The position numbers and the translations under genes are program-made. From a phage: DNA of 64,000 nt. How positions within the stretch are numbered: position 1 is the first letter of the stretch; each line of letters begins with the position of its first letter. The DNA lies in the NCBI GenBank assembly GCA_027337125.1, contig GCA_027337125.1_3057.1. One strand, written 5' to 3'. Under the pieces are notes generated by a model that saw only the letters and a list, made by a program, of their open reading frames with translations, was not told the DNA's origin and did no database searches. Shown one piece after another: positions 1 through 18,904 of the stretch.

Positions 1-629
1 GCATCTAATTTAGCTGCATCAGTTGCGCCAGCATCGATTGTTACTACAGCAGAAGCCTGCAGATACACAGTACCAGTGTCCTGGAAGAAGTGAGTATAGA
101 TATCACCTACTGTGGTTTGTGTGCTAGCAGCCAGAGCTGTGAATTTCTTAGCAGCACCCTGACCAGAGAACATTGCATCTGGACCATACATTGGGTGGAA
201 TGCTTCTTTAGCACCGGCAGCGATTGGGTCTTTACCATATACTGCGCGCAGTGCGAATACCTGACCGGTCGGGCTGTTCATCGGCTGAACACCGCAAATA
301 TCGAAAGCAATCAGGTTAGGAATAGCACGACGTACCATACCCATAACAGCTGGGCCAATCTGAGTTACTGCGCCAGAAGTCTGACCAGCAGCGATGTTAG
401 TAGCGTTGTAACCATGGTCACCACCGATTTCAGCTTCTGTTAAGAAAGAACCGAATGCCTGAGCAATTTTTTCGTCTTTGTACTCTGGAGCTGTCTGGAA
501 ATCTTTTTCCTGGTTTTCAAAGATTTTAGCGATAATCGCTTGTTTGCTATTAGCAATTTCCGGTAAACCTTCACCTTCCAGTAATGGCTTCCATTTGTTC
601 AAAAGTTCAGCTTTAGTTTTGATAGTCAT
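1..629 (-). CDS. 23: Major capsid protein gp23, N-terminal ~209 codons (3' part lies beyond window start)
   Basis: Reverse complement of 600-629 reads ATGACTATCAAAACTAAAGCTGAACTT = MTIKTKAELL, the T4 gp23 N-terminus; frame open to position 1; sits downstream of gene 22 as in T4. Confidence 0.93.
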   Translation of the reverse strand, partial: MTIKTKAELLNKWKPLLEGEGLPEIANSKQAIIAKIFENQEKDFQTAPEYKDEKIAQAFGSFLTEAEIGGDHGYNATNIAAGQTSGAVTQIGPAVMGMVRRAIPNLIAFDICGVQPMNSPTGQVFALRAVYGKDPIAAGAKEAFHPMYGPDAMFSGQGAAKKFTALAASTQTTVGDIYTHFFQDTGTVYLQASAVVTIDAGATDAAKLD

Positions 630-647
630 TTGTGTTAACCTTTAAAA

Positions 648-1457
648 TTAGAAACGAGATGCGACTTTCGCATATACACTTACAATATCTTCTGCACCGG
701 GTGCAGCTTTATCTTCTACAGCTTCAGTGACGAAATTCAGTCCGGCTGCTTCAGTATCAGGAGTATTTATACCCTCAGTAATAGTGCTTTCATCTTTATT
801 AGACTTCTTCACCATTTCTACGATGGCACTCAATTTACTTGAGAATTCATCTGAATAATCCATACCTTCGACCAGAGCAGAGACTTTTTCTTTTTGAGAC
901 TCAGTCAGATCTTTAGTACTTTCGCTCAATGCCACTTCACGCTGCACATAATTGATATATGCGTCGCGCATATTGAGTTCTTCGAACAGACGAGCTGATT
1001 CTTCTTTATGTTCTTGCAGCTCTTCTTCCATTTCAGCCACAACATCAACTGATTCTTCTGGAACAACAACGTTGTGTTCAACAAAGAGCTCTTTTAATCC
1101 ACCAAGCATGGATTCAAACAGTTCGGCTTTGATGCCTTTATCAACTGCTAATTTATTTTCAGCGAGCCATTCTTTCGCAAGATGGTCGATGAATTTAGAA
1201 GCTTGCTCAGCGATTTTCTTCTCAGCTTTTTCTTCGGCTTCTTCTTTATTTTTTTCTACTTCTTCTTCTGCTTTTTCAGCAATTTTAGCGATATGAGATT
1301 CAGCTAATTTAACGGCGTGCTGCTTGACGGTAGCTTCGAATACAGTGCCGAAAGTTTCTTTTGCTTCCGGAGAAATATTAACTGATTCGAAAATACTATC
1401 AAGAGCAACGGAAGCATCAATTTTTTGCGCTTCAGCAATCAGTTGTTCTTTAAGCAT
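648..1457 (-). CDS. 22: Prohead core scaffold protein gp22
   Basis: 269 aa, ATG start, acidic coiled-coil-like sequence; same length and position as T4 gp22. Confidence 0.92.
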   Translation of the reverse strand: MLKEQLIAEAQKIDASVALDSIFESVNISPEAKETFGTVFEATVKQHAVKLAESHIAKIAEKAEEEVEKNKEEAEEKAEKKIAEQASKFIDHLAKEWLAENKLAVDKGIKAELFESMLGGLKELFVEHNVVVPEESVDVVAEMEEELQEHKEESARLFEELNMRDAYINYVQREVALSESTKDLTESQKEKVSALVEGMDYSDEFSSKLSAIVEMVKKSNKDESTITEGINTPDTEAAGLNFVTEAVEDKAAPGAEDIVSVYAKVASRF

Positions 1458-1484
1458 TTTGTAGTCCTGTTGTTTAGATAATAA

Positions 1485-1492
1485 TATTTATA
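1485..1492 (-). promoter_or_regulatory. T4-type late promoter (TATAAATA on minus strand) upstream of gene 22
   Basis: Plus-strand tatttata 28 nt upstream of the gene 22 ATG. Confidence 0.5.
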
Positions 1493-2126
1493 ACGCTTTT
1501 TTCATGGCCTCTGCGAGAGCCATATAGGCGTCATCGGCACTTGTATCGGCTTCCGCCGTCTGTGATTCGGTAATTTCCTTAGGAGTTACCCATGCATCTG
1601 GAGCACTTGGACCCCATACTGCATCAACACCTACAGTTAATTTGAATCCTTCGTTTACGATACGATAACCTTTATTTGTGTCAGTCAATGAACCTAATCC
1701 ACGAGAAGAAACTCCTGGAATCCATCCGGCACGAATATTAGCTGCTAATTTATCTCCAGGACCGTGGTCACCTTCAATAACACGAGCTCGTCCGTATACG
1801 TCATTTCCTTTCCACCACATATCTTCTATAATGATAGCGGCTTGCATCGGGTCAACATTAGCGCGTGGAGGATGATTTAATTCTCCGAGAGCTTGTTTAG
1901 TTAAAACTTGCTCATTAATATAGTCTTTTACCGCTTTTTCTAATATGCGTTTTGGATAAAGACGTTTATTTCTATTGACGACTTCTGCTTGCATGAATAT
2001 TCCTTCGATGTATAAACCCGGTTTTAAACCTAAGTCTTTTCCATCGTGGGATTCAAGCATTGGCACACCATCAATAATTTCGCCAGGTTGACCCCAAGTT
2101 TCAATTAGTAATTGGGGTTCATTCAT
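1488..2126 (-). CDS. 21: Prohead core protease gp21
   Basis: 212 aa, same length and synteny as T4 gp21. Confidence 0.92.
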   Translation of the reverse strand: MNEPQLLIETWGQPGEIIDGVPMLESHDGKDLGLKPGLYIEGIFMQAEVVNRNKRLYPKRILEKAVKDYINEQVLTKQALGELNHPPRANVDPMQAAIIIEDMWWKGNDVYGRARVIEGDHGPGDKLAANIRAGWIPGVSSRGLGSLTDTNKGYRIVNEGFKLTVGVDAVWGPSAPDAWVTPKEITESQTAEADTSADDAYMALAEAMKKAL

Positions 2127-2551
2127 TAGCTTAATCCTAATGCTTTACGGCGTTTAAGAGCTTTTTTACGCTTACGCTGAGCACGAGATTGACCTGCTGG
2201 ATTGGCAATCTTCGTTTTGGTAGCTTTGCGAGCAATTTGTCTACGTTTTGCTTTAGACAGCCCAGTGGTTTGAAATGCATTACGTTCGCGTGTTTTGCGG
2301 TCTTTAGTACGTGTAATTTCACCACGAGCTGAAACGTGCTTAACAATGAATTCATTTAACGGCATGTTTTCATTAATAGAAGCTAATGCAACTGCTAAAT
2401 CAGTTTCATCATCAAGCATATTCTCGACAATTGTATTTATATCGTCTTTATTTAAAGCAGAAGACAATTCGTCAAAGCGACCCTGTGCTTCAGGAATAAG
2501 TGCTTCGACATTCTCGAGAACTAATTCATGAGTTTCAGGGATCAGAAGCAT
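2126..2551 (-). CDS. 68: Prohead core protein gp68
   Basis: 141 aa with basic C-terminus, between genes 67 and 21 as in T4. Confidence 0.85.
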
Positions 2552-2780
2552 TATTCATCATCCTCGTCTTCGTCATCTTCGTCTTTTTTGTCGTCTTTAT
2601 CATCACCGTCTTCGTCATCATCCTCGTCTTCAGGTTCTTCACCTTCGATTAAGAAATTACGAGCGATAGCGATTTTTTCTTCTTTAATTAAATCAATCGT
2701 TCTTGCAGCCATGGCTTCAGCAAATAATTTACGAGCGGCTACGAGGTCGTTTGATTTAATAGCTTCAATTAAACCTTCCA

Positions 2781-2781
<1 letters not shown>
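2551..2781 (-). CDS. 67: Prohead core protein gp67 (acidic C-terminal tract)
   Basis: 76 aa ending in a poly-D/E tract; position between 20 and 68. Confidence 0.85.
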
Positions 2782-4406
<1,625 letters not shown>

Positions 4407-4438
4407 TTAAGCAGGATGGGGATTTCTCCCCATTCATT

Positions 4439-4930
4439 TTATTCCCAATAATCGAGAGCGAGAGTTACTTCAAAGGTTTGGATTTCATTGTTTGAATCCC
4501 AATCTAACTGAAGTTCACCCACGTTAGTAGGCCACAGGCCTTTAATTTCGACTTCTTTTGTTACAGTTTTAGCGTCACGAGCATATTGGCGTACAATAGC
4601 ACTCTTTTTATACTCTGCTGGTTTTCCACCAGTAATTTCGTTTCCTTGCCCAGCAGCAATGCTTTGCCAGTCAACAAACTTCTGGCGTGCATCATGCGCC
4701 TCATCATTCATTACTGTAATAGTCCAGTCATCGAATGTACGATCGCCTGCTACGTTAATTTTACGGTTCATAAATCCGACTGGAATTTTTTCTACAATAC
4801 CAGCTGGTAAAGCAGTGGCTTTACATTGAAACGTAAAATTTTGTCCAAGATAAGAAATTTCTACTTGGAATAAGTTAGGTCGAGCAAAATCACCAGATTC
4901 AAACGCTCGTGTTACATCATCTACAAACAT
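4439..4930 (-). CDS. 19: Tail tube protein gp19
   Basis: 163 aa, same length as T4 gp19; synteny between 18 and 20. Confidence 0.94.
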   Translation of the reverse strand: MFVDDVTRAFESGDFARPNLFQVEISYLGQNFTFQCKATALPAGIVEKIPVGFMNRKINVAGDRTFDDWTITVMNDEAHDARQKFVDWQSIAAGQGNEITGGKPAEYKKSAIVRQYARDAKTVTKEVEIKGLWPTNVGELQLDWDSNNEIQTFEVTLALDYWE

Positions 4931-4944
4931 ATTAGCCTCTGTAG

Positions 4945-4952
4945 TATTTATA
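4945..4952 (-). promoter_or_regulatory. Late promoter TATAAATA proximal to gene 19
   Basis: Plus tatttata 15 nt upstream of the gp19 ATG with a GAGG RBS between. Confidence 0.45.
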
Positions 4953-5003
4953 TCCCTATGTTTAACCTAGGGCATATAGAATTAAAGAATTAAGGATATA
5001 GTG

Positions 5004-5011
5004 TATTTATA
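5004..5011 (-). promoter_or_regulatory. Second late promoter TATAAATA, directly after the HNH-gene hairpin
   Basis: Plus tatttata at 5004-5011 adjacent to hairpin 5013-5030. Confidence 0.4.
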
Positions 5012-5012
5012 T

Positions 5013-5030
5013 GGCCTGCCGAAACAGGCC
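5013..5030 (-). terminator. GC hairpin (ggcctg-ccgaaa-caggcc) just downstream of the HNH ORF stop
   Basis: Perfect 6-bp stem read directly; no strong U-run on the minus strand, so may be a stabiliser/processing hairpin rather than a terminator. Confidence 0.35.
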
Positions 5031-5037
5031 TTTAGAA

Positions 5038-5676
5038 TCATTCTAGTAAATCCCAAAGATCTACGCTATTTCTTTTTGACTTTTCTCGGTTAGATTCCCA
5101 AGTGATTATTTCTAAATTTTTTACGCTTGCTATAATTTCCGGTGGAATTAAATTATCAAATCCATATTTGATAGATACTTTATGATCGAGTTGGTAAGCA
5201 CCTTCTACACCACACACTCCTATTTTATCAGCATTCGGCCATTTTGACCAAATTTTTCTTATTTTAGCTGACTTAGTTATAGAATGAACTCTACTAGCAT
5301 ATAATGCAAACTCTTTTCTTTTACCAGTCCATCGAGGATGTTTATCGCCTCTTTGCCATGGTCTGCTTATTCCAGATTGAACTTCCGAATTTTTAATAGC
5401 AACTTGTTTAATGCTACATTTTCTACATGCGTGGGTGGGTGTTCTATTTAAAAGCTGAATGCTTCTACTAAATTTAACACCACACAAATCGCATTTAGCG
5501 TCAACTATTTTATTACTATTCTTTGGCATTAATTCTATTGGAACAGATATTGTATCATGATATGATACTTTATATCCCAGAATTGTCGACCACATTTTTG
5601 AATGATTTCTTGGTTTTATTGTAACAAACTTAGAAATAATCACTTGTTTCCTCGATAATAGGGGCCGAAGCCCCAT
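5038..5676 (-). CDS. Free-standing HNH homing endonuclease (N-terminal Cys-rich zinc-finger-like region, C-terminal HNH)
   Basis: C-terminus AYQLDHKVSIKYGFDN...NLEIITWESNREKSKRN is HNH-like; N-terminal CDLCGVKF...HACRKCS; track ORF starts at TTG 5682, first ATG is codon 3 (5676), inside hairpin 5661-5674. Confidence 0.75.
   Translation of the reverse strand: MGLRPLLSRKQVIISKFVTIKPRNHSKMWSTILGYKVSYHDTISVPIELMPKNSNKIVDAKCDLCGVKFSRSIQLLNRTPTHACRKCSIKQVAIKNSEVQSGISRPWQRGDKHPRWTGKRKEFALYASRVHSITKSAKIRKIWSKWPNADKIGVCGVEGAYQLDHKVSIKYGFDNLIPPEIIASVKNLEIITWESNREKSKRNSVDLWDLLE
5661..5674 (-). other. GC hairpin (ggggcc-ga-ggcccc core) after the gene 18 stop, overlapping the HNH start codon
   Basis: Inverted repeat ggggccgaagcccc read directly; encodes codons MGLRP of the HNH ORF. 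Confidence 0.45.
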
Positions 5677-5686
5677 AATCAATCAA

Positions 5687-7666
5687 TTAACCTGCAAGAC
5701 CAGTCAACTCATCGAAATCTGCACCAGTAGCAGTTGCGACGAAATTAAGTTGGATATAATTTATACTACGAGCCGGTTGGATGTAGAATGTTGCAACAAA
5801 CTCATTTCTATCAATTACTGACGGAGTATTATTTGTTGTATCGCAAACTACACGATATTCATAAATTCCACCGAGAGCTTTAATTCCCTGTAAGTATTGG
5901 GCAGTTTCTGTGCGGAATGATGAACGAGTAAACGCGTTGTTTAATTCGAACAAACGATATTTTGAACTACGTCCGATATTCGTTTTCAACATATTAAACA
6001 GACGGCGAACGTTAATACGATCAAATGGAGAAGGAACAGAAGTAGCTGTTTTATCACCATACAATACGTAACCATCACCACCGGTACCAGTTACAGGGTT
6101 AATAGCTTCTTGATATAAGCGGTCACGCTGAGATTGGCGAGTTTCAATAGCAAGTTTAATAACGTTCAGAATTTGACCACGATTATAACCAGCTGGTGAC
6201 ATCCAAGTTTGAGAAACATTATCAGTTCTTGCGCACAATCCAGCAATATCAGCTGCTAATGGAACCCAACGATTCACATCATTATATTTGTCATACTGAT
6301 ATTTGTAGTTACCATCAATTGCTGCATAGGTTGAACTAATATTAAAGTTATTATCAGTATATGAACCTGCGGCAGTTCTCCAGTTAACTAAATTATCTAC
6401 TGCACGAGTTACAGGAATTCCAACTACAGTTTCACGTGGAGGAGAGCACAATACTAAGCAATCTTGACGAGCATCACCAATTGAAACAACATGTTTTTGA
6501 ACAGTAGATGCTGTTTCAAGAGATTCACCGGCACAAGAACCAGCAATAAACAACTGAACATCTACAGATTCACGGTCAGCAAAGAAGTCCCATGCTTCCA
6601 TCAAATCTCCTGCTGTTACTTCAGCATTTGATGATAACCCACCAGACAGAGTTAAAATTCCAGAGAATCCTTCTGGCCAGTTTTGTGCAGTTGCAAAAAT
6701 ATATTCTGAACCACCTTTTGCGAAAAAGTCATCGATATAGATGTTACTATCGTAAATATCTTTTTCACCACGCTTAGTTGAAAGAACAATGCTTTGAACA
6801 ATAGCATCATTTCGACGAACTATAATTGCGTACTGTGAGTCAGTCTGCGGTCCATATCCAAACACTGCCTTGGCAGTAGATGCACGAGTACCACCACCTG
6901 GATAAATTGGGAGTAATGCAGAAGCGCCTTTCGCGTAGTCAGCTTTAGATACGATTTCAATTTCAATTTTATCGCCTAATTCGCCTGGATAAAGAGCTAC
7001 TACTCCTGGAATTCCATATTTTTTAAGATTTTCCTGAAAATCAACAGCTGTTATAGCAGCTTCAGCATTTTCAATTTCAGCTAATAAAATACCAGAATCA
7101 GTAATAATTTTTCCAAGAGTTATTACTGCAGCTAAACCAGAGGAAGATGAAGAAACTTCAGCGGTCCAGTTAGAACCTAATTCCGGATATTCACCGACTT
7201 CTTTCGCTTTAGCGATAATTTTTGCAGTAGGAATATTAATTTTCTTAATTTTTCCATCAGCATCTACTTCGGTAATTTTACCTTCCGTTTCAATGTCTTC
7301 TGAAACATACTTAACTGTGATTTTATCTCCAACCGCGTAGTTACTACCTGGGGTAGAAATAGTGTATTCAATATTACCAGCAATCGGAGATGAGTTTTTA
7401 GCGGTATCTCTATCGACAGCACGCACAACTCGCAAATCATTTCCATATTGTAAGAAATTCATTGCAGACATAAAATAGTCAGCAGTTTCAGCTGTAGGTT
7501 GACCAAAAGTATTAACTAAATCTACTTCATTTGTAACCTGTTTAATTTGAAAAGCAGGACCCCACTGGAATTTACCGGCCAAAGCTGCTGTACCAGTAGA
7601 GTTATTAACCACGGTGCTTTGAACCGTAGTTTCTTTGAGCTCAATGCCCGGAGATAATAAAGTCAT
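5687..7666 (-). CDS. 18: Tail sheath protein gp18
   Basis: 659 aa, identical length to T4 gp18; synteny. Confidence 0.95.
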   Translation of the reverse strand: MTLLSPGIELKETTVQSTVVNNSTGTAALAGKFQWGPAFQIKQVTNEVDLVNTFGQPTAETADYFMSAMNFLQYGNDLRVVRAVDRDTAKNSSPIAGNIEYTISTPGSNYAVGDKITVKYVSEDIETEGKITEVDADGKIKKINIPTAKIIAKAKEVGEYPELGSNWTAEVSSSSSGLAAVITLGKIITDSGILLAEIENAEAAITAVDFQENLKKYGIPGVVALYPGELGDKIEIEIVSKADYAKGASALLPIYPGGGTRASTAKAVFGYGPQTDSQYAIIVRRNDAIVQSIVLSTKRGEKDIYDSNIYIDDFFAKGGSEYIFATAQNWPEGFSGILTLSGGLSSNAEVTAGDLMEAWDFFADRESVDVQLFIAGSCAGESLETASTVQKHVVSIGDARQDCLVLCSPPRETVVGIPVTRAVDNLVNWRTAAGSYTDNNFNISSTYAAIDGNYKYQYDKYNDVNRWVPLAADIAGLCARTDNVSQTWMSPAGYNRGQILNVIKLAIETRQSQRDRLYQEAINPVTGTGGDGYVLYGDKTATSVPSPFDRINVRRLFNMLKTNIGRSSKYRLFELNNAFTRSSFRTETAQYLQGIKALGGIYEYRVVCDTTNNTPSVIDRNEFVATFYIQPARSINYIQLNFVATATGADFDELTGLAG

Positions 7667-7694
7667 TTTTAATCCTCTTTAATATGCTTTAATA

Positions 7695-10835
<3,141 letters not shown>

Positions 10836-17099: not shown

Positions 17100-18904
17100 T
17101 ATGCAATCCTTATCCAACGGTATACAGTAATAGACGGTTGAATATTACTAATATTAGCAGGAGGAGTATGTGAAGAGTTTGTTGTTGCATAGTCTTCACG
17201 ATATTTTGTATATATAGGACCAGTTTCATCTGGGTCATATTGGCAACCCCCAATAATAACCGATCCATTTTCGTCTTCAATTAAAACTCTTTCGTCGGTT
17301 TTAGTCGCAGGAAGATTTGCGTTTTCAAGTGTCACCGTTGTTGTTCCAACCGTTCCACCGGCAGTATGTGAAGGATTTCCGCTAGAATCTAAATCATTAT
17401 TGTTTAAAGCAAAGTTTGGATCCGTAACATCATCATTCCATCCTACTAAAACTTGTCCTTTACCAAATAATTTCCATGAACCAAATCCCATATAAGTCAC
17501 CGGATTATTTGGATTTATAGCATTTTCATAAATTGAACCTACAGGATAAATGCTATCGAAAATAGATGATATTGAATTATACGTTCTAGTATAAGAATCA
17601 ACTTTTTCAACATTTGGCCAACCGATTTTATCAAAATCTGTTAAGGCCACATCACCAGTAACTTCAGTAGATGATCCTTTACTAACATAACGGTCATCCG
17701 TTAATTCAATAATGTCATCTTTTTCTAAAAGAGTTCCTAAATCATTATTGAACCACGTTATAACGATTATATCGCCTGATTCAAATTTTCTATCAAATAA
17801 AAGACTGATAGGTTTTCCATCTTCATATTCTATAGAATAATCTGTGTTTGATTCTTTCCATTCGCCACCAAGAGATATACATCCTTCTTGCGTATCTGAA
17901 TTAGCGCCTTCACACAAAAACAGAGGATATCCAGCGGTTCCAGCCTGCTGCTGTAAAATTCCATTAAAACGAACCTCAAGAGAATTAGGATTAATGGGTT
18001 CACCAGGAATTAATCCAAATGCAGAAAATGGAATTGATTTCATCGCCGATAAATCAGTAACATAAATGCTTCCTTCTAAAGAAGTCTTTGATGTTAGTTT
18101 TGAATCCAGTACTTTTATTTGGCGTCTTGTATATGAACTTCTCCATTGTGATACACCATCCATAAATGTTTCAATTTGAACGGTGTCACCAATATTACAA
18201 GGCTGTCTTAATCGAATATTAAATCCATCAAGAGGAACTAATTCGCCTTCATTTTCGCCCGGAGAGCCAAAGTCACTGTTTTCGCTAAATACATCACCGT
18301 AATACAATTCGTTACCACGATGTTTTACTCTGATGTTATTGACATTATAACTAGTTCCATTGAAAACATCTAAAAAGTCTGTTTGCCCTTGAACTTCAAC
18401 TAAAAATTCTTTGCGAGCTACATTACTAATGTCTGAACTAATAATTTTATCAATTTGCTTATTTTTGACATACTCCCAGCGTCCTGGAGCGCAATAAACG
18501 AGCTCTAAATCACTAAATTGAATATTAATTTCAACTGATGATGACGACCCTTTAATTGTATCTCCGGAAGCAGCTACTAGTGTAACTGGATTGATGTTCC
18601 ACGTTGCAAATACATCCCTGGCTCTAATTACCTTGTTGTAATCATTGACAGTTCCTTTAGGAAGTTGTAGAGTTACTCTTCCAGAAGAGGTATTAATAGC
18701 GTATGATTTTCCCCATTCTGCCGTTAGTGTTTGACCAGATGAAGCATCATAAGTTTTCCAGGCACCGGCTGAATATGGAACATCTCCATCACCAAGTTCA
18801 TAATAAAGCTCATCAAAGTTTTCATTTATTTTTATACCACCTTTACGCAGGTAGTCACCGGTACCATCATCAACAACATTACCGATATTAATATTTTGTT
18901 TCAT
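17099..18904 (-). CDS. 10: Baseplate wedge protein gp10
   Basis: 601 aa; size and synteny with T4 gp10. Confidence 0.92.

Follow-up and report, generated by a model that had tools for sequence, protein, structure and literature searches.

Phages of the T4 type find wide use in phage therapy, and their free-standing homing endonucleases give rise to localised marker exclusion and mosaicism. The mobA to mobE genes of T4 are free-standing HNH genes of this kind, and MobE has been shown to be active. HNH endonucleases of the I-HmuI type have an Asp-His ... Asn ... Asn active site and NUMOD modules, and the HNH endonuclease of phage GVE2 works with the terminase. SegH and Hef reportedly replace mobC and mobE in T4 relatives, as Sandegren et al. 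2005 are said to have found. Seven free-standing endonuclease genes of T4 are promoter-less cassettes (PMC2988022). We have analysed a stretch of 64,000 nucleotides of phage DNA (contig GCA_027337125.1_3057.1, hereafter the window), which belongs to a Tequatrovirus with top matches to WL-3, ECML-134, T6 and PST at 97-98% identity. Between its tail sheath gene (gene 18) and its tail tube gene (gene 19), at positions 5039-5686, it probably contains a free-standing homing endonuclease gene (HEG) cassette of the gp19.1 family, present also in T6 and VR7.

The limits of the cassette were found by comparison with empty sites. In T4 the 18-19 spacer is 116 nt long and reads TAA-TACGGTGC-ATTCTAAAGG, followed by a hairpin (hairpin 2), a TATAAATA late-promoter box, a further stretch, a second TATAAATA and gene 19. 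An earlier interpretation of the window made from its letters only (the sequence-only reading) stated that this junction carries no gene in T4, and both the T4 annotation and the junction comparison agree. The 108 nt from ATTCTAAAGG up to gene 19 are identical in the HEG-less T4, the window, T6 and RB6; therefore the insertion comprises 5039-5686, 648 nt in total. The boundaries are clean in the comparison of T4, T6, RB6 and the empty-site loci (TAA, cassette, ATTCTAAAGG). The cassette replaces an 8-nt filler, TACGGTGC, that is the same in T4 and in every empty-site locus read, and homology with the empty site restarts at the A of the TGA stop of the open reading frame (ORF). The insertion point is the same in Karamvirus, where KMB17 has its cassette exactly between TAA and TTCTAAGAC while CC31 is empty. 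The HEG-less T4 has hairpin 2 and both TATAAATA boxes in identical form, and hairpin 2 is unchanged in all the empty-site loci too; therefore these elements were not carried in by the insertion, contrary to the earlier proposal that it had brought or duplicated them. The sole structured element travelling with the ORF is another hairpin (hairpin 1), which restores a stable hairpin immediately behind gene 18. At this same end the number of TTGA copies differs among near-identical phages, with TTGATTGATT in the window and in locus L028, TTGATT in T6 and others and TTGAT in RB6, a variation that could be due to slippage or represent a junction scar.

Database searches gave 502 Tequatrovirus junction records, 382 empty versus about 120 occupied. 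The ORF is thus not carried by all T4-like phages, and the sporadic presence expected by the sequence-only reading was confirmed. The T6-type allele was found in about 70-79 records and the RB3/RB6-type allele in 48. Pattern scans of IMG/VR and of JGI metagenomes gave few loci; all five from IMG/VR had the empty site and one of the five from JGI (L019) was T6-type. The site is also empty in RB69, and in Dhakavirus JS98 is empty and Bp7 occupied, so that occupied and empty members exist in three genera (Tequatrovirus, Karamvirus and Dhakavirus). Homologues were located immediately behind the sheath gene in 10 lineages, that is, in all the lineages examined, including VR7, KMB17, S16, CHI14, Roth21, Bp7, the Aeromonas phage AS-zj and the Sinorhizobium phage phiM12. 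Identity matrices separated three HEG subfamilies that cut across the sheath relationships, namely A (T6, VR7, KMB17), B (RB6, S16, Roth21, L042) and C (CHI14, Bp7). For example, T6 and RB6 have sheaths 99% identical versus HEG N-terminal domains that are only 39% identical, and for VR7 and Bp7 the values are 93% for the sheaths and 30% for the HEGs. The T6-type and RB3-type alleles have a common 5' leader, share 17 codons at the start and some 75 at the end (89% DNA identity), and differ in the N-terminal domain. Judging from these comparisons, the incongruence between HEG and sheath points to a mobile, site-specific gene rather than to one inherited vertically and then lost in some phages.

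The features of the locus are listed below. The tail genes are all on the minus strand, and the elements located by the sequence-only reading were all found where it had placed them, on the same strand.

5687..7666, minus strand: gene 18 (tail sheath), 659 aa, upstream neighbour (ORF list and T4-type annotated matches)
5735..5776, minus strand: candidate target, immunity or co-conversion patch in gene 18, with dense, mostly synonymous substitutions
5039..5686, minus strand: inserted cassette of 648 nt with TTGA repeats, hairpin 1, Shine-Dalgarno and ORF (junction comparison)
5677..5686, minus strand: TTGA repeat TTGATTGATT, immediately 3' of the gene 18 stop
5661..5674, minus strand: hairpin 1, GGGGC-UUCG-GCCCC, cassette-borne, holding the non-initiating ATG 5676-5674
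5646..5652, minus strand: Shine-Dalgarno GAGGAAA, with the GAGG core 6 nt 5' of the GTG start
5038..5643, minus strand: ORF of a putative homing endonuclease, T6 gp19.1 family, 201 aa from GTG (coordinates including the stop codon)
5416..5493, minus strand: CxxC..CxxC zinc-finger core (C51, C54, C73, C76) in the N-terminal, presumed DNA-binding, domain, with conserved Cys columns
5080..5196, minus strand: HNH-like beta-beta-alpha-metal core YQLDH...NLEIITWESNREK, residues 150-188
5013..5030, minus strand: hairpin 2, GGCCUGU-UUCG-GCAGGCC, native to the 18-19 intergenic region
5004..5011, minus strand: distal TATAAATA late-promoter box, native, also in T4
4945..4952, minus strand: gene 19-proximal TATAAATA late-promoter box, native, also in T4
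4439..4930, minus strand: gene 19 (tail tube), 163 aa, downstream neighbour (ORF list and T4-type annotated matches)

The protein matches PHROG 5104 (E 1.5e-81), a family labelled as of unknown function, and its homologues are all unnamed and lack a Pfam assignment. The earlier description of an HNH-type ORF with a Cys-rich N-terminus was borne out. The CxxC..CxxC columns (C51, C54, C73, C76) are conserved in the N-terminal part of the alignment, where weak matches to the DUF4379 treble clef were obtained for 14 of the 43 members. The C-terminal D153-H154...N176...N185 is invariant in all 43 homologues, as is the wider motif YQLDH..S...G....NL....W..NR.K. The AlphaFold model, a confident one (pLDDT, predicted local distance difference test, 89.4), contains two domains joined by a low-confidence linker and places the motif on a strand (150-154), a second strand (177-181) and a helix (182-188), that is, on a beta-beta-alpha element. 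The hallmarks of the HNH superfamily are therefore present: the beta-hairpin and helix of a metal finger, with a His at the end of strand 1 in the place of the general base, an Asn in that of the structural Asn and another in the helix in that of the metal ligand. Profile collections recognised this domain poorly; there was no HNH family at E<1 in Pfam, nothing in NCBIfam, and HNH_4 matched just one of the 43 members (E 0.078) and two of 60 relatives (E 3.5e-4). Sequence-profile searches of the PDB gave zinc fingers and spurious leucine-rich repeats (LRR), with nothing significant for HNH; the LRR match (E 4e-4) was discarded as a resemblance to the repeated 'IPxEIGxLxNLxxL' and not homology. 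A Foldseek comparison of the whole model with the PDB found zero matches with E<0.38, and in BFVD the structural neighbours outside the family are labelled as HNH, homing or intron-encoded endonucleases.

A profile of the C-terminal domain recovered 4133 cluster representatives (50% clustering), 1500 of them with E<=1e-10. In the 60 distant relatives sampled the equivalent D, H, N and N were invariant without exception; conservation of the catalytic His had been set beforehand as a test, and H154 passed it in the 43 close homologues as well as in the 60 distant ones. The nuclease domain of the relatives is fused to NUMOD3, to several helix-turn-helix (HTH) types, to DUF7487 or to DUF4379, at least five kinds of DNA-binding module in all, in a family that the Pfam HNH models do not detect reliably. 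Such fusions constitute the modular architecture typical of homing endonucleases. Both fold and motif, and not a family model, thus point to a divergent HNH-like domain in gp19.1. In the Tequatrovirus loci the ORF was intact in 15 of 15 copies, with 19 variable codons synonymous and 5 non-synonymous, suggesting a functional gene maintained under purifying selection.

The reading frame is open from 5682 to 5038 and has three possible starts, TTG 5682, ATG 5676 (212 aa) and GTG 5643 (201 aa). The sequence-only reading gave the protein 213 aa and started it at the ATG; from this codon (5676-5674) it has 212 aa, and from the in-frame GTG (5643-5641) it has 201. Four lines of evidence place the translation start at the GTG. 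One is the GAGGAAA (5652-5646) located at the ideal spacing 5' of it, while no purine-rich stretch precedes the hairpin ATG in the window. Another is the MIISK N-terminus, equivalent to the GTG position, found in nearly all of the 43 aligned homologues (among the exceptions are the RB3-type representative P0013, for which the hairpin ATG was taken as the start, and two proteins with longer N-termini, P0021 and P0047); in agreement, PHROG 5104 aligns from residue 12 onwards when the protein is started at the ATG. A Shine-Dalgarno followed by GTG-ATT-ATT is found in T6, RB6, VR7, KMB17, S16 and Roth21, and CHI14, Bp7 and phiM12 have an ATG at the same position. The Shine-Dalgarno is conserved in the Tequatrovirus copies and has a purine-rich counterpart before the GTG in VR7, KMB17 and Roth21. 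Finally, two loci (L019 and L028) have GTG in place of the hairpin ATG. Three positions vary between the ATG and the GTG, and each of these changes would alter the amino acid if the stretch were translated, whereas within the ORF synonymous variants outnumber non-synonymous ones by 19 to 5. Hairpin 1 ends 8 nt 5' of the Shine-Dalgarno and therefore its stem covers neither the Shine-Dalgarno nor the start codon. A weak extension of the hairpin reaches the first bases of the Shine-Dalgarno and is non-significant (z -1.1 to -1.8). The 'hairpin-gated start' at the ATG could thus not be upheld, with a conserved GTG start and a stem (5674-5661) clear of both the Shine-Dalgarno (5652-5646) and the GTG (5643). 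Unlike in the hairpin-sequestered starts of the I-TevI, segB and Aeh1 mobE type, neither the ribosome-binding site (RBS) nor the functional start is within the stem, and there is no TATAAATA at 5644-5700 that could act as a late promoter giving transcripts devoid of the 5' hairpin arm.

Hairpin 1 folds with -10.8 kcal/mol, a value reached by 6 of 200 shuffled sequences, and hairpin 2 with -12.8 kcal/mol (z -4.0), reached by none of 200. The stem and loop of hairpin 1 are invariant in the 15 HEG+ (gene-carrying) Tequatrovirus loci, the hairpin is missing from all the empty sites read, and in other genera hairpins of different sequence are found at the analogous position. There is no U-tract at hairpin 1 and therefore it is not a canonical terminator. 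The TATAAATA box is found 16 times in the whole window, with 10.9 expected, so that the count by itself is unremarkable; within 1-8000 all seven boxes are on the coding strand, and those at 4945-4952, 5004-5011, 4384-4391 and 7695-7702 are just upstream of genes 19, 20 and 18. No convincing promoter belonging to the Tequatrovirus cassette was detected. The only sigma70-like match, TTGATT-16-TATTAT across hairpin 1 (5682-5655), scores 9/12, a level found at chance frequency in this AT-rich region (18 versus 11.5 expected), and transcription from it would begin within the Shine-Dalgarno, so it was rejected. In VR7 (L004, 1441-1490), KMB17 (L005, 1442-1491) and Roth21 (L008, 1527-1590) the cassettes do have 10/12 sigma70-like promoters just 3' of the gene 18 stop, with the -10 box extending into the 5' arm of a strong hairpin of their own located just 5' of the Shine-Dalgarno. 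Transcripts started there would not contain the hairpin, unlike those reading through from gene 18, in which it would form. The AAGG of the Shine-Dalgarno is paired in the Roth21 fold, and in VR7 a TATAAATA lies in the loop. This layout, which the Tequatrovirus cassette does not have, may be a temporal switch.

Within gene 18, at 49-90 nt before its stop, the patch listed above accumulates 14 differences per 42 nt between T4 and T6, 11 between T4 and RB6, 13 between CC31 and KMB17 and 9 between JS98 and Bp7, versus about 1-3 per 42-nt bin elsewhere. The recoded codons (A-R-S-I-N-Y-I-T-L-N-F-V) differ almost wholly by synonymous changes; the window has CGT AGT ATA AAT TAT ATC CAA CTT AAT TTC GTC (R-S-I-N-Y-I-Q-L-N-F-V). 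The non-synonymous exception is the Thr, replaced by Gln in T6-type phages and by Val in KMB17 and VR7, and across the T4 superfamily the peptide hardly varies. We refer to the T4-type version as patch A and to the one carried by T6-type phages as patch B. Patch B was present in all the T6-type loci read (11 unique) and in all the T6-type records that were sampled from the database searches; in three genera the patch goes together with the T6-type allele and subfamily A. Among the empty sites, roughly 290 have patch A and about 110 have 'HEG-linked' versions. RB69 is counted as being without homing endonuclease genes (Petrov et al. 2010), yet next to its empty site gene 18 reads TCG ATA AAT TAT ATT (L122, about 18130-18170), the codon choice linked to HEG+ phages, and may be a trace left by an earlier occupant, or else a resistant site. 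A chimeric query was used to ask whether the T4-type patch and the HEG are mutually exclusive. For the RB3-type allele they are not; an intact RB3-type gene is found beside patch A in three or four phages (sb1, sb3, Ec_YwIITB1), therefore the patch is not an obligatory immunity determinant for subfamily B. Neither the final 48 nt of gene 18 nor gene 19 showed fixed nucleotide differences marking HEG+ phages. The recoding AGT ATA AAT TAT also yields TATAAATT (window 5761-5768, minus strand), one base off the T4 late-promoter box and ~115 nt upstream of the endonuclease start, in T6-type, RB3-type and Roth21 phages. It was considered as a late promoter linked to the cassette and discarded, since VR7, KMB17 and S16 have GATAAATT instead.

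The patch may be the recognition site of the subfamily A enzymes or may be a co-conversion tract hitch-hiking with the cassette, and the true target may instead be the empty junction, destroyed by the insertion itself. We put forward its role as target or immunity site as a hypothesis, not as a finding; were it the target, it would be a clear example of immunity by synonymous recoding. A broader scenario, which we regard as tentative and rather doubtful, is that the gp19.1 family is a superfamily-wide lineage of homing endonucleases specialised on a single target, the sheath-gene sequence coding for the nearly invariant P-A-R-S-I-N-Y-I-T-L-N-F-V-A, 50-90 bp before the insertion. Three subfamilies exchanging zinc fingers would compete for the slot, synonymous recoding of ~10 consecutive codons (plus Thr to Gln or Val) would protect HEG+ genomes of subfamily A from cutting themselves, and recoded empty sites would be footprints of past invasions. 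If this were true, RB69 and about a quarter of the empty Tequatroviruses would carry 'resistant' sites.

The way in which a homing cassette would operate here can be outlined. A 201-aa two-domain protein would be made from GTG 5643-5641, with the CxxC..CxxC zinc finger as putative DNA-binding and specificity module and a divergent HNH nuclease with predicted active site D153/H154, N176 and N185 at the C-terminus. In a mixed infection the enzyme would nick or cut the HEG-less 18-19 region of a co-infecting relative, and recombinational repair from the HEG+ genome would copy the cassette and some of the flanking gene 18 into the empty site. The cassette is probably transcribed by read-through of gene 18 late transcripts, and the weak GUG start probably holds expression low. 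Hairpin 1 would most likely act as a stable 3' end or insulator of the gene 18 mRNA, as hairpin 2 would in T4, and gene 19 would retain its native hairpin and two late promoters unchanged. Several points weigh against this picture. The nuclease and homing activities of the gp19.1 family members are putative, and the sequences are compatible with either gain by homing or loss by deletion. The immunity patch appears not to be obligatory, since Shigella phage sb1 has an intact RB3-type gene together with the T4-type patch. The role proposed for hairpin 1 is that of an element without a U-tract.

Three other explanations were considered. The gene could be an HEG-derived nuclease, domesticated to exclude or degrade co-infecting relatives or parasites and not to spread selfishly. 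HEG-derived defence genes are known elsewhere, for example odn of ICP1 (PMC10448857), and the strongly purifying selection, the nearly always intact copies and the very large size of the family would fit such a role, but the gene is kept by just about a quarter of the Tequatroviruses and shows HEG-like allele turnover at one locus. Exclusion and homing usually coincide, and the present data do not separate the two; we consider domestication unlikely. Quite unlikely as well, in our opinion, is a non-mobile gene of ancestral origin, accessory to the tail module, with a conventional function (DNA processing or linked to assembly) and deleted in T4 and many relatives. The position behind the sheath conserved across very distant phages, the purifying selection with rare decay, and the same short filler in all the empty sites, which could be the scar of a single old deletion, are what such a gene would leave. 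However, its relationships would not be expected to be so strongly incongruent with those of the sheath gene, nor its alleles to be 39% identical in the N-terminal domain between 99% identical flanks. Occupied and empty states also alternate in three genera, with the same clean boundaries in Tequatrovirus and Karamvirus, the two examined at the junction, and the relatives have modular nuclease and NUMOD/HTH architectures. The label 'head morphogenesis protein' found in some records had no support in any search (Pfam, PHROG and NCBIfam). Finally, the model of the sequence-only reading, in which the ATG within hairpin 1 throttles a 212/213-aa endonuclease and the insertion brought or duplicated hairpin 2 and a late promoter so that gene 19 would still be expressed, seems to us very improbable. 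The ATG is indeed in frame and within a stable C(UUCG)G hairpin, sequestration of RBS or start is known for I-TevI, segB and Aeh1 mobE (PMC2988022), and some gene callers begin at it (P0001, 212 aa). But it is the GTG that GAGGAAA precedes and at which nearly all homologues start, while the ATG has no Shine-Dalgarno, is a GTG in L019 and L028, and is followed by changes that would all be non-synonymous; the identity of hairpin 2 and both TATAAATA in the HEG-less T4 already contradicted the rest.

The ORF already figures in public databases under the name 'gp19.1' (T6, VR7, vB_SsoM_113), in most cases described as a hypothetical protein; elsewhere it has been given unsupported or questionable names, among them 'holin', 'putative head morphogenesis protein' and 'type II restriction endonuclease'. 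In Salmonella phage S16 the annotated gp100.1 (L006, 1596-2216) has 106 aa, although the ORF is intact with 206 aa from the conserved GTG, and in RB6 (L003, 1107-1724), RB7, RB9 and RB10 an intact 205-aa copy was left unannotated. Recognition of the family thus corrects the annotation, both in the GTG start and in these truncated or missing genes. One 'other HNH' gene was counted in T6 (Petrov et al. 2010), possibly gp19.1. Our literature searches found no paper on gp19.1, on an 18-19 endonuclease or on its function. Sequences of the Tequatrovirus 18-19 region at 98-99% identity are also found in entries of Pseudomonas phage PsgM02F (H49/H108) and Staphylococcus phage SAJK-IND (H213/H296), which are probably mislabelled or contaminated.

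Downstream, 3' of gene 19 (window 4384-4435), there is a GGGGAGAAATCCCC hairpin followed by TATAAATA (4384-4391) and then gene 20, and this hairpin-then-late-promoter order is the punctuation also found in the native 18-19 spacer. A different ORF, of 193 aa, is located between genes 19 and 20 in Bp7 (L010, 3769-4350) and KMB17 (L005, 2748-3329). In Bp7 it is annotated as 'HNH endonuclease' and gene 20 is annotated as two pieces. In these phages the 19-20 spacer, one gene further on, seems to be a second place that endonuclease genes occupy sporadically; the 193-aa type of ORF is absent from this spacer in the window.

The gp19.1 family is present in about a quarter of the Tequatrovirus genomes and in many other genera, and a biased inheritance of the gene 18-19 region can be predicted in mixed infections or phage cocktails. 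Its combination of a zinc finger with an HNH-like domain offers a compact scaffold with natural specificity variants. Within what is known of T4-type mobile genes, gp19.1 is an uncharacterised addition to an ordinary class, and what makes it of note is its superfamily-wide fidelity to the sheath gene, the allele turnover and the recoded patch.

Several described systems can be compared. The Gme HNH nicking endonuclease (4h9d) and the GVE2 HNH protein (5h0o) are 8-17% identical to the window protein, have a single domain and are not homing enzymes. With the I-HmuI type it shares the DH..N..N on a beta-beta-alpha element and, through its relatives, NUMOD3, although the domain order is reversed and no significant sequence matches to PDB HNH proteins were obtained. 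As in I-TevI, segB and Aeh1 mobE there is a hairpin near the start of the endonuclease gene; however, those hairpins sequester the RBS and are accompanied by an internal late promoter, whereas here the stem is off the Shine-Dalgarno and the true start, and TATAAATA is neither in nor beside hairpin 1. A parallel in layout is seg43(25) of Aeromonas phage 25, an unusual case with a very stable, non-sequestering hairpin directly 5' of the RBS (PMC2988022). The same order of hairpin, Shine-Dalgarno and start is found in the window, VR7, KMB17 and Roth21, although seg43(25) is a GIY-YIG gene at another locus and the hairpin roles are putative in both. The T6-type and RB3-type alleles recall SegH and Hef in being alternative endonuclease genes at one locus in close relatives, with the difference that they share cassette ends and nuclease domain and diverge in the presumed DNA-binding domain. 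There is also a likeness to the T4 mob genes, which are small intergenic ORFs between conserved essential genes, sporadic among close relatives, promoter-less and read from upstream host promoters, that combine an HNH-type nuclease with a DNA-binding module (PMC2988022). The window gene differs from them in its 18-19 location, in having the nuclease C-terminal and the zinc finger N-terminal, and in belonging to PHROG 5104, with no Pfam HNH or PHROG 'mob' assignment found. It shows presence and absence at a fixed site, incongruence with the flanking genes and a nuclease domain joined to a separable DNA-binding module, and by analogy it would work like the free-standing mob and seg HEGs of the T-even phages.

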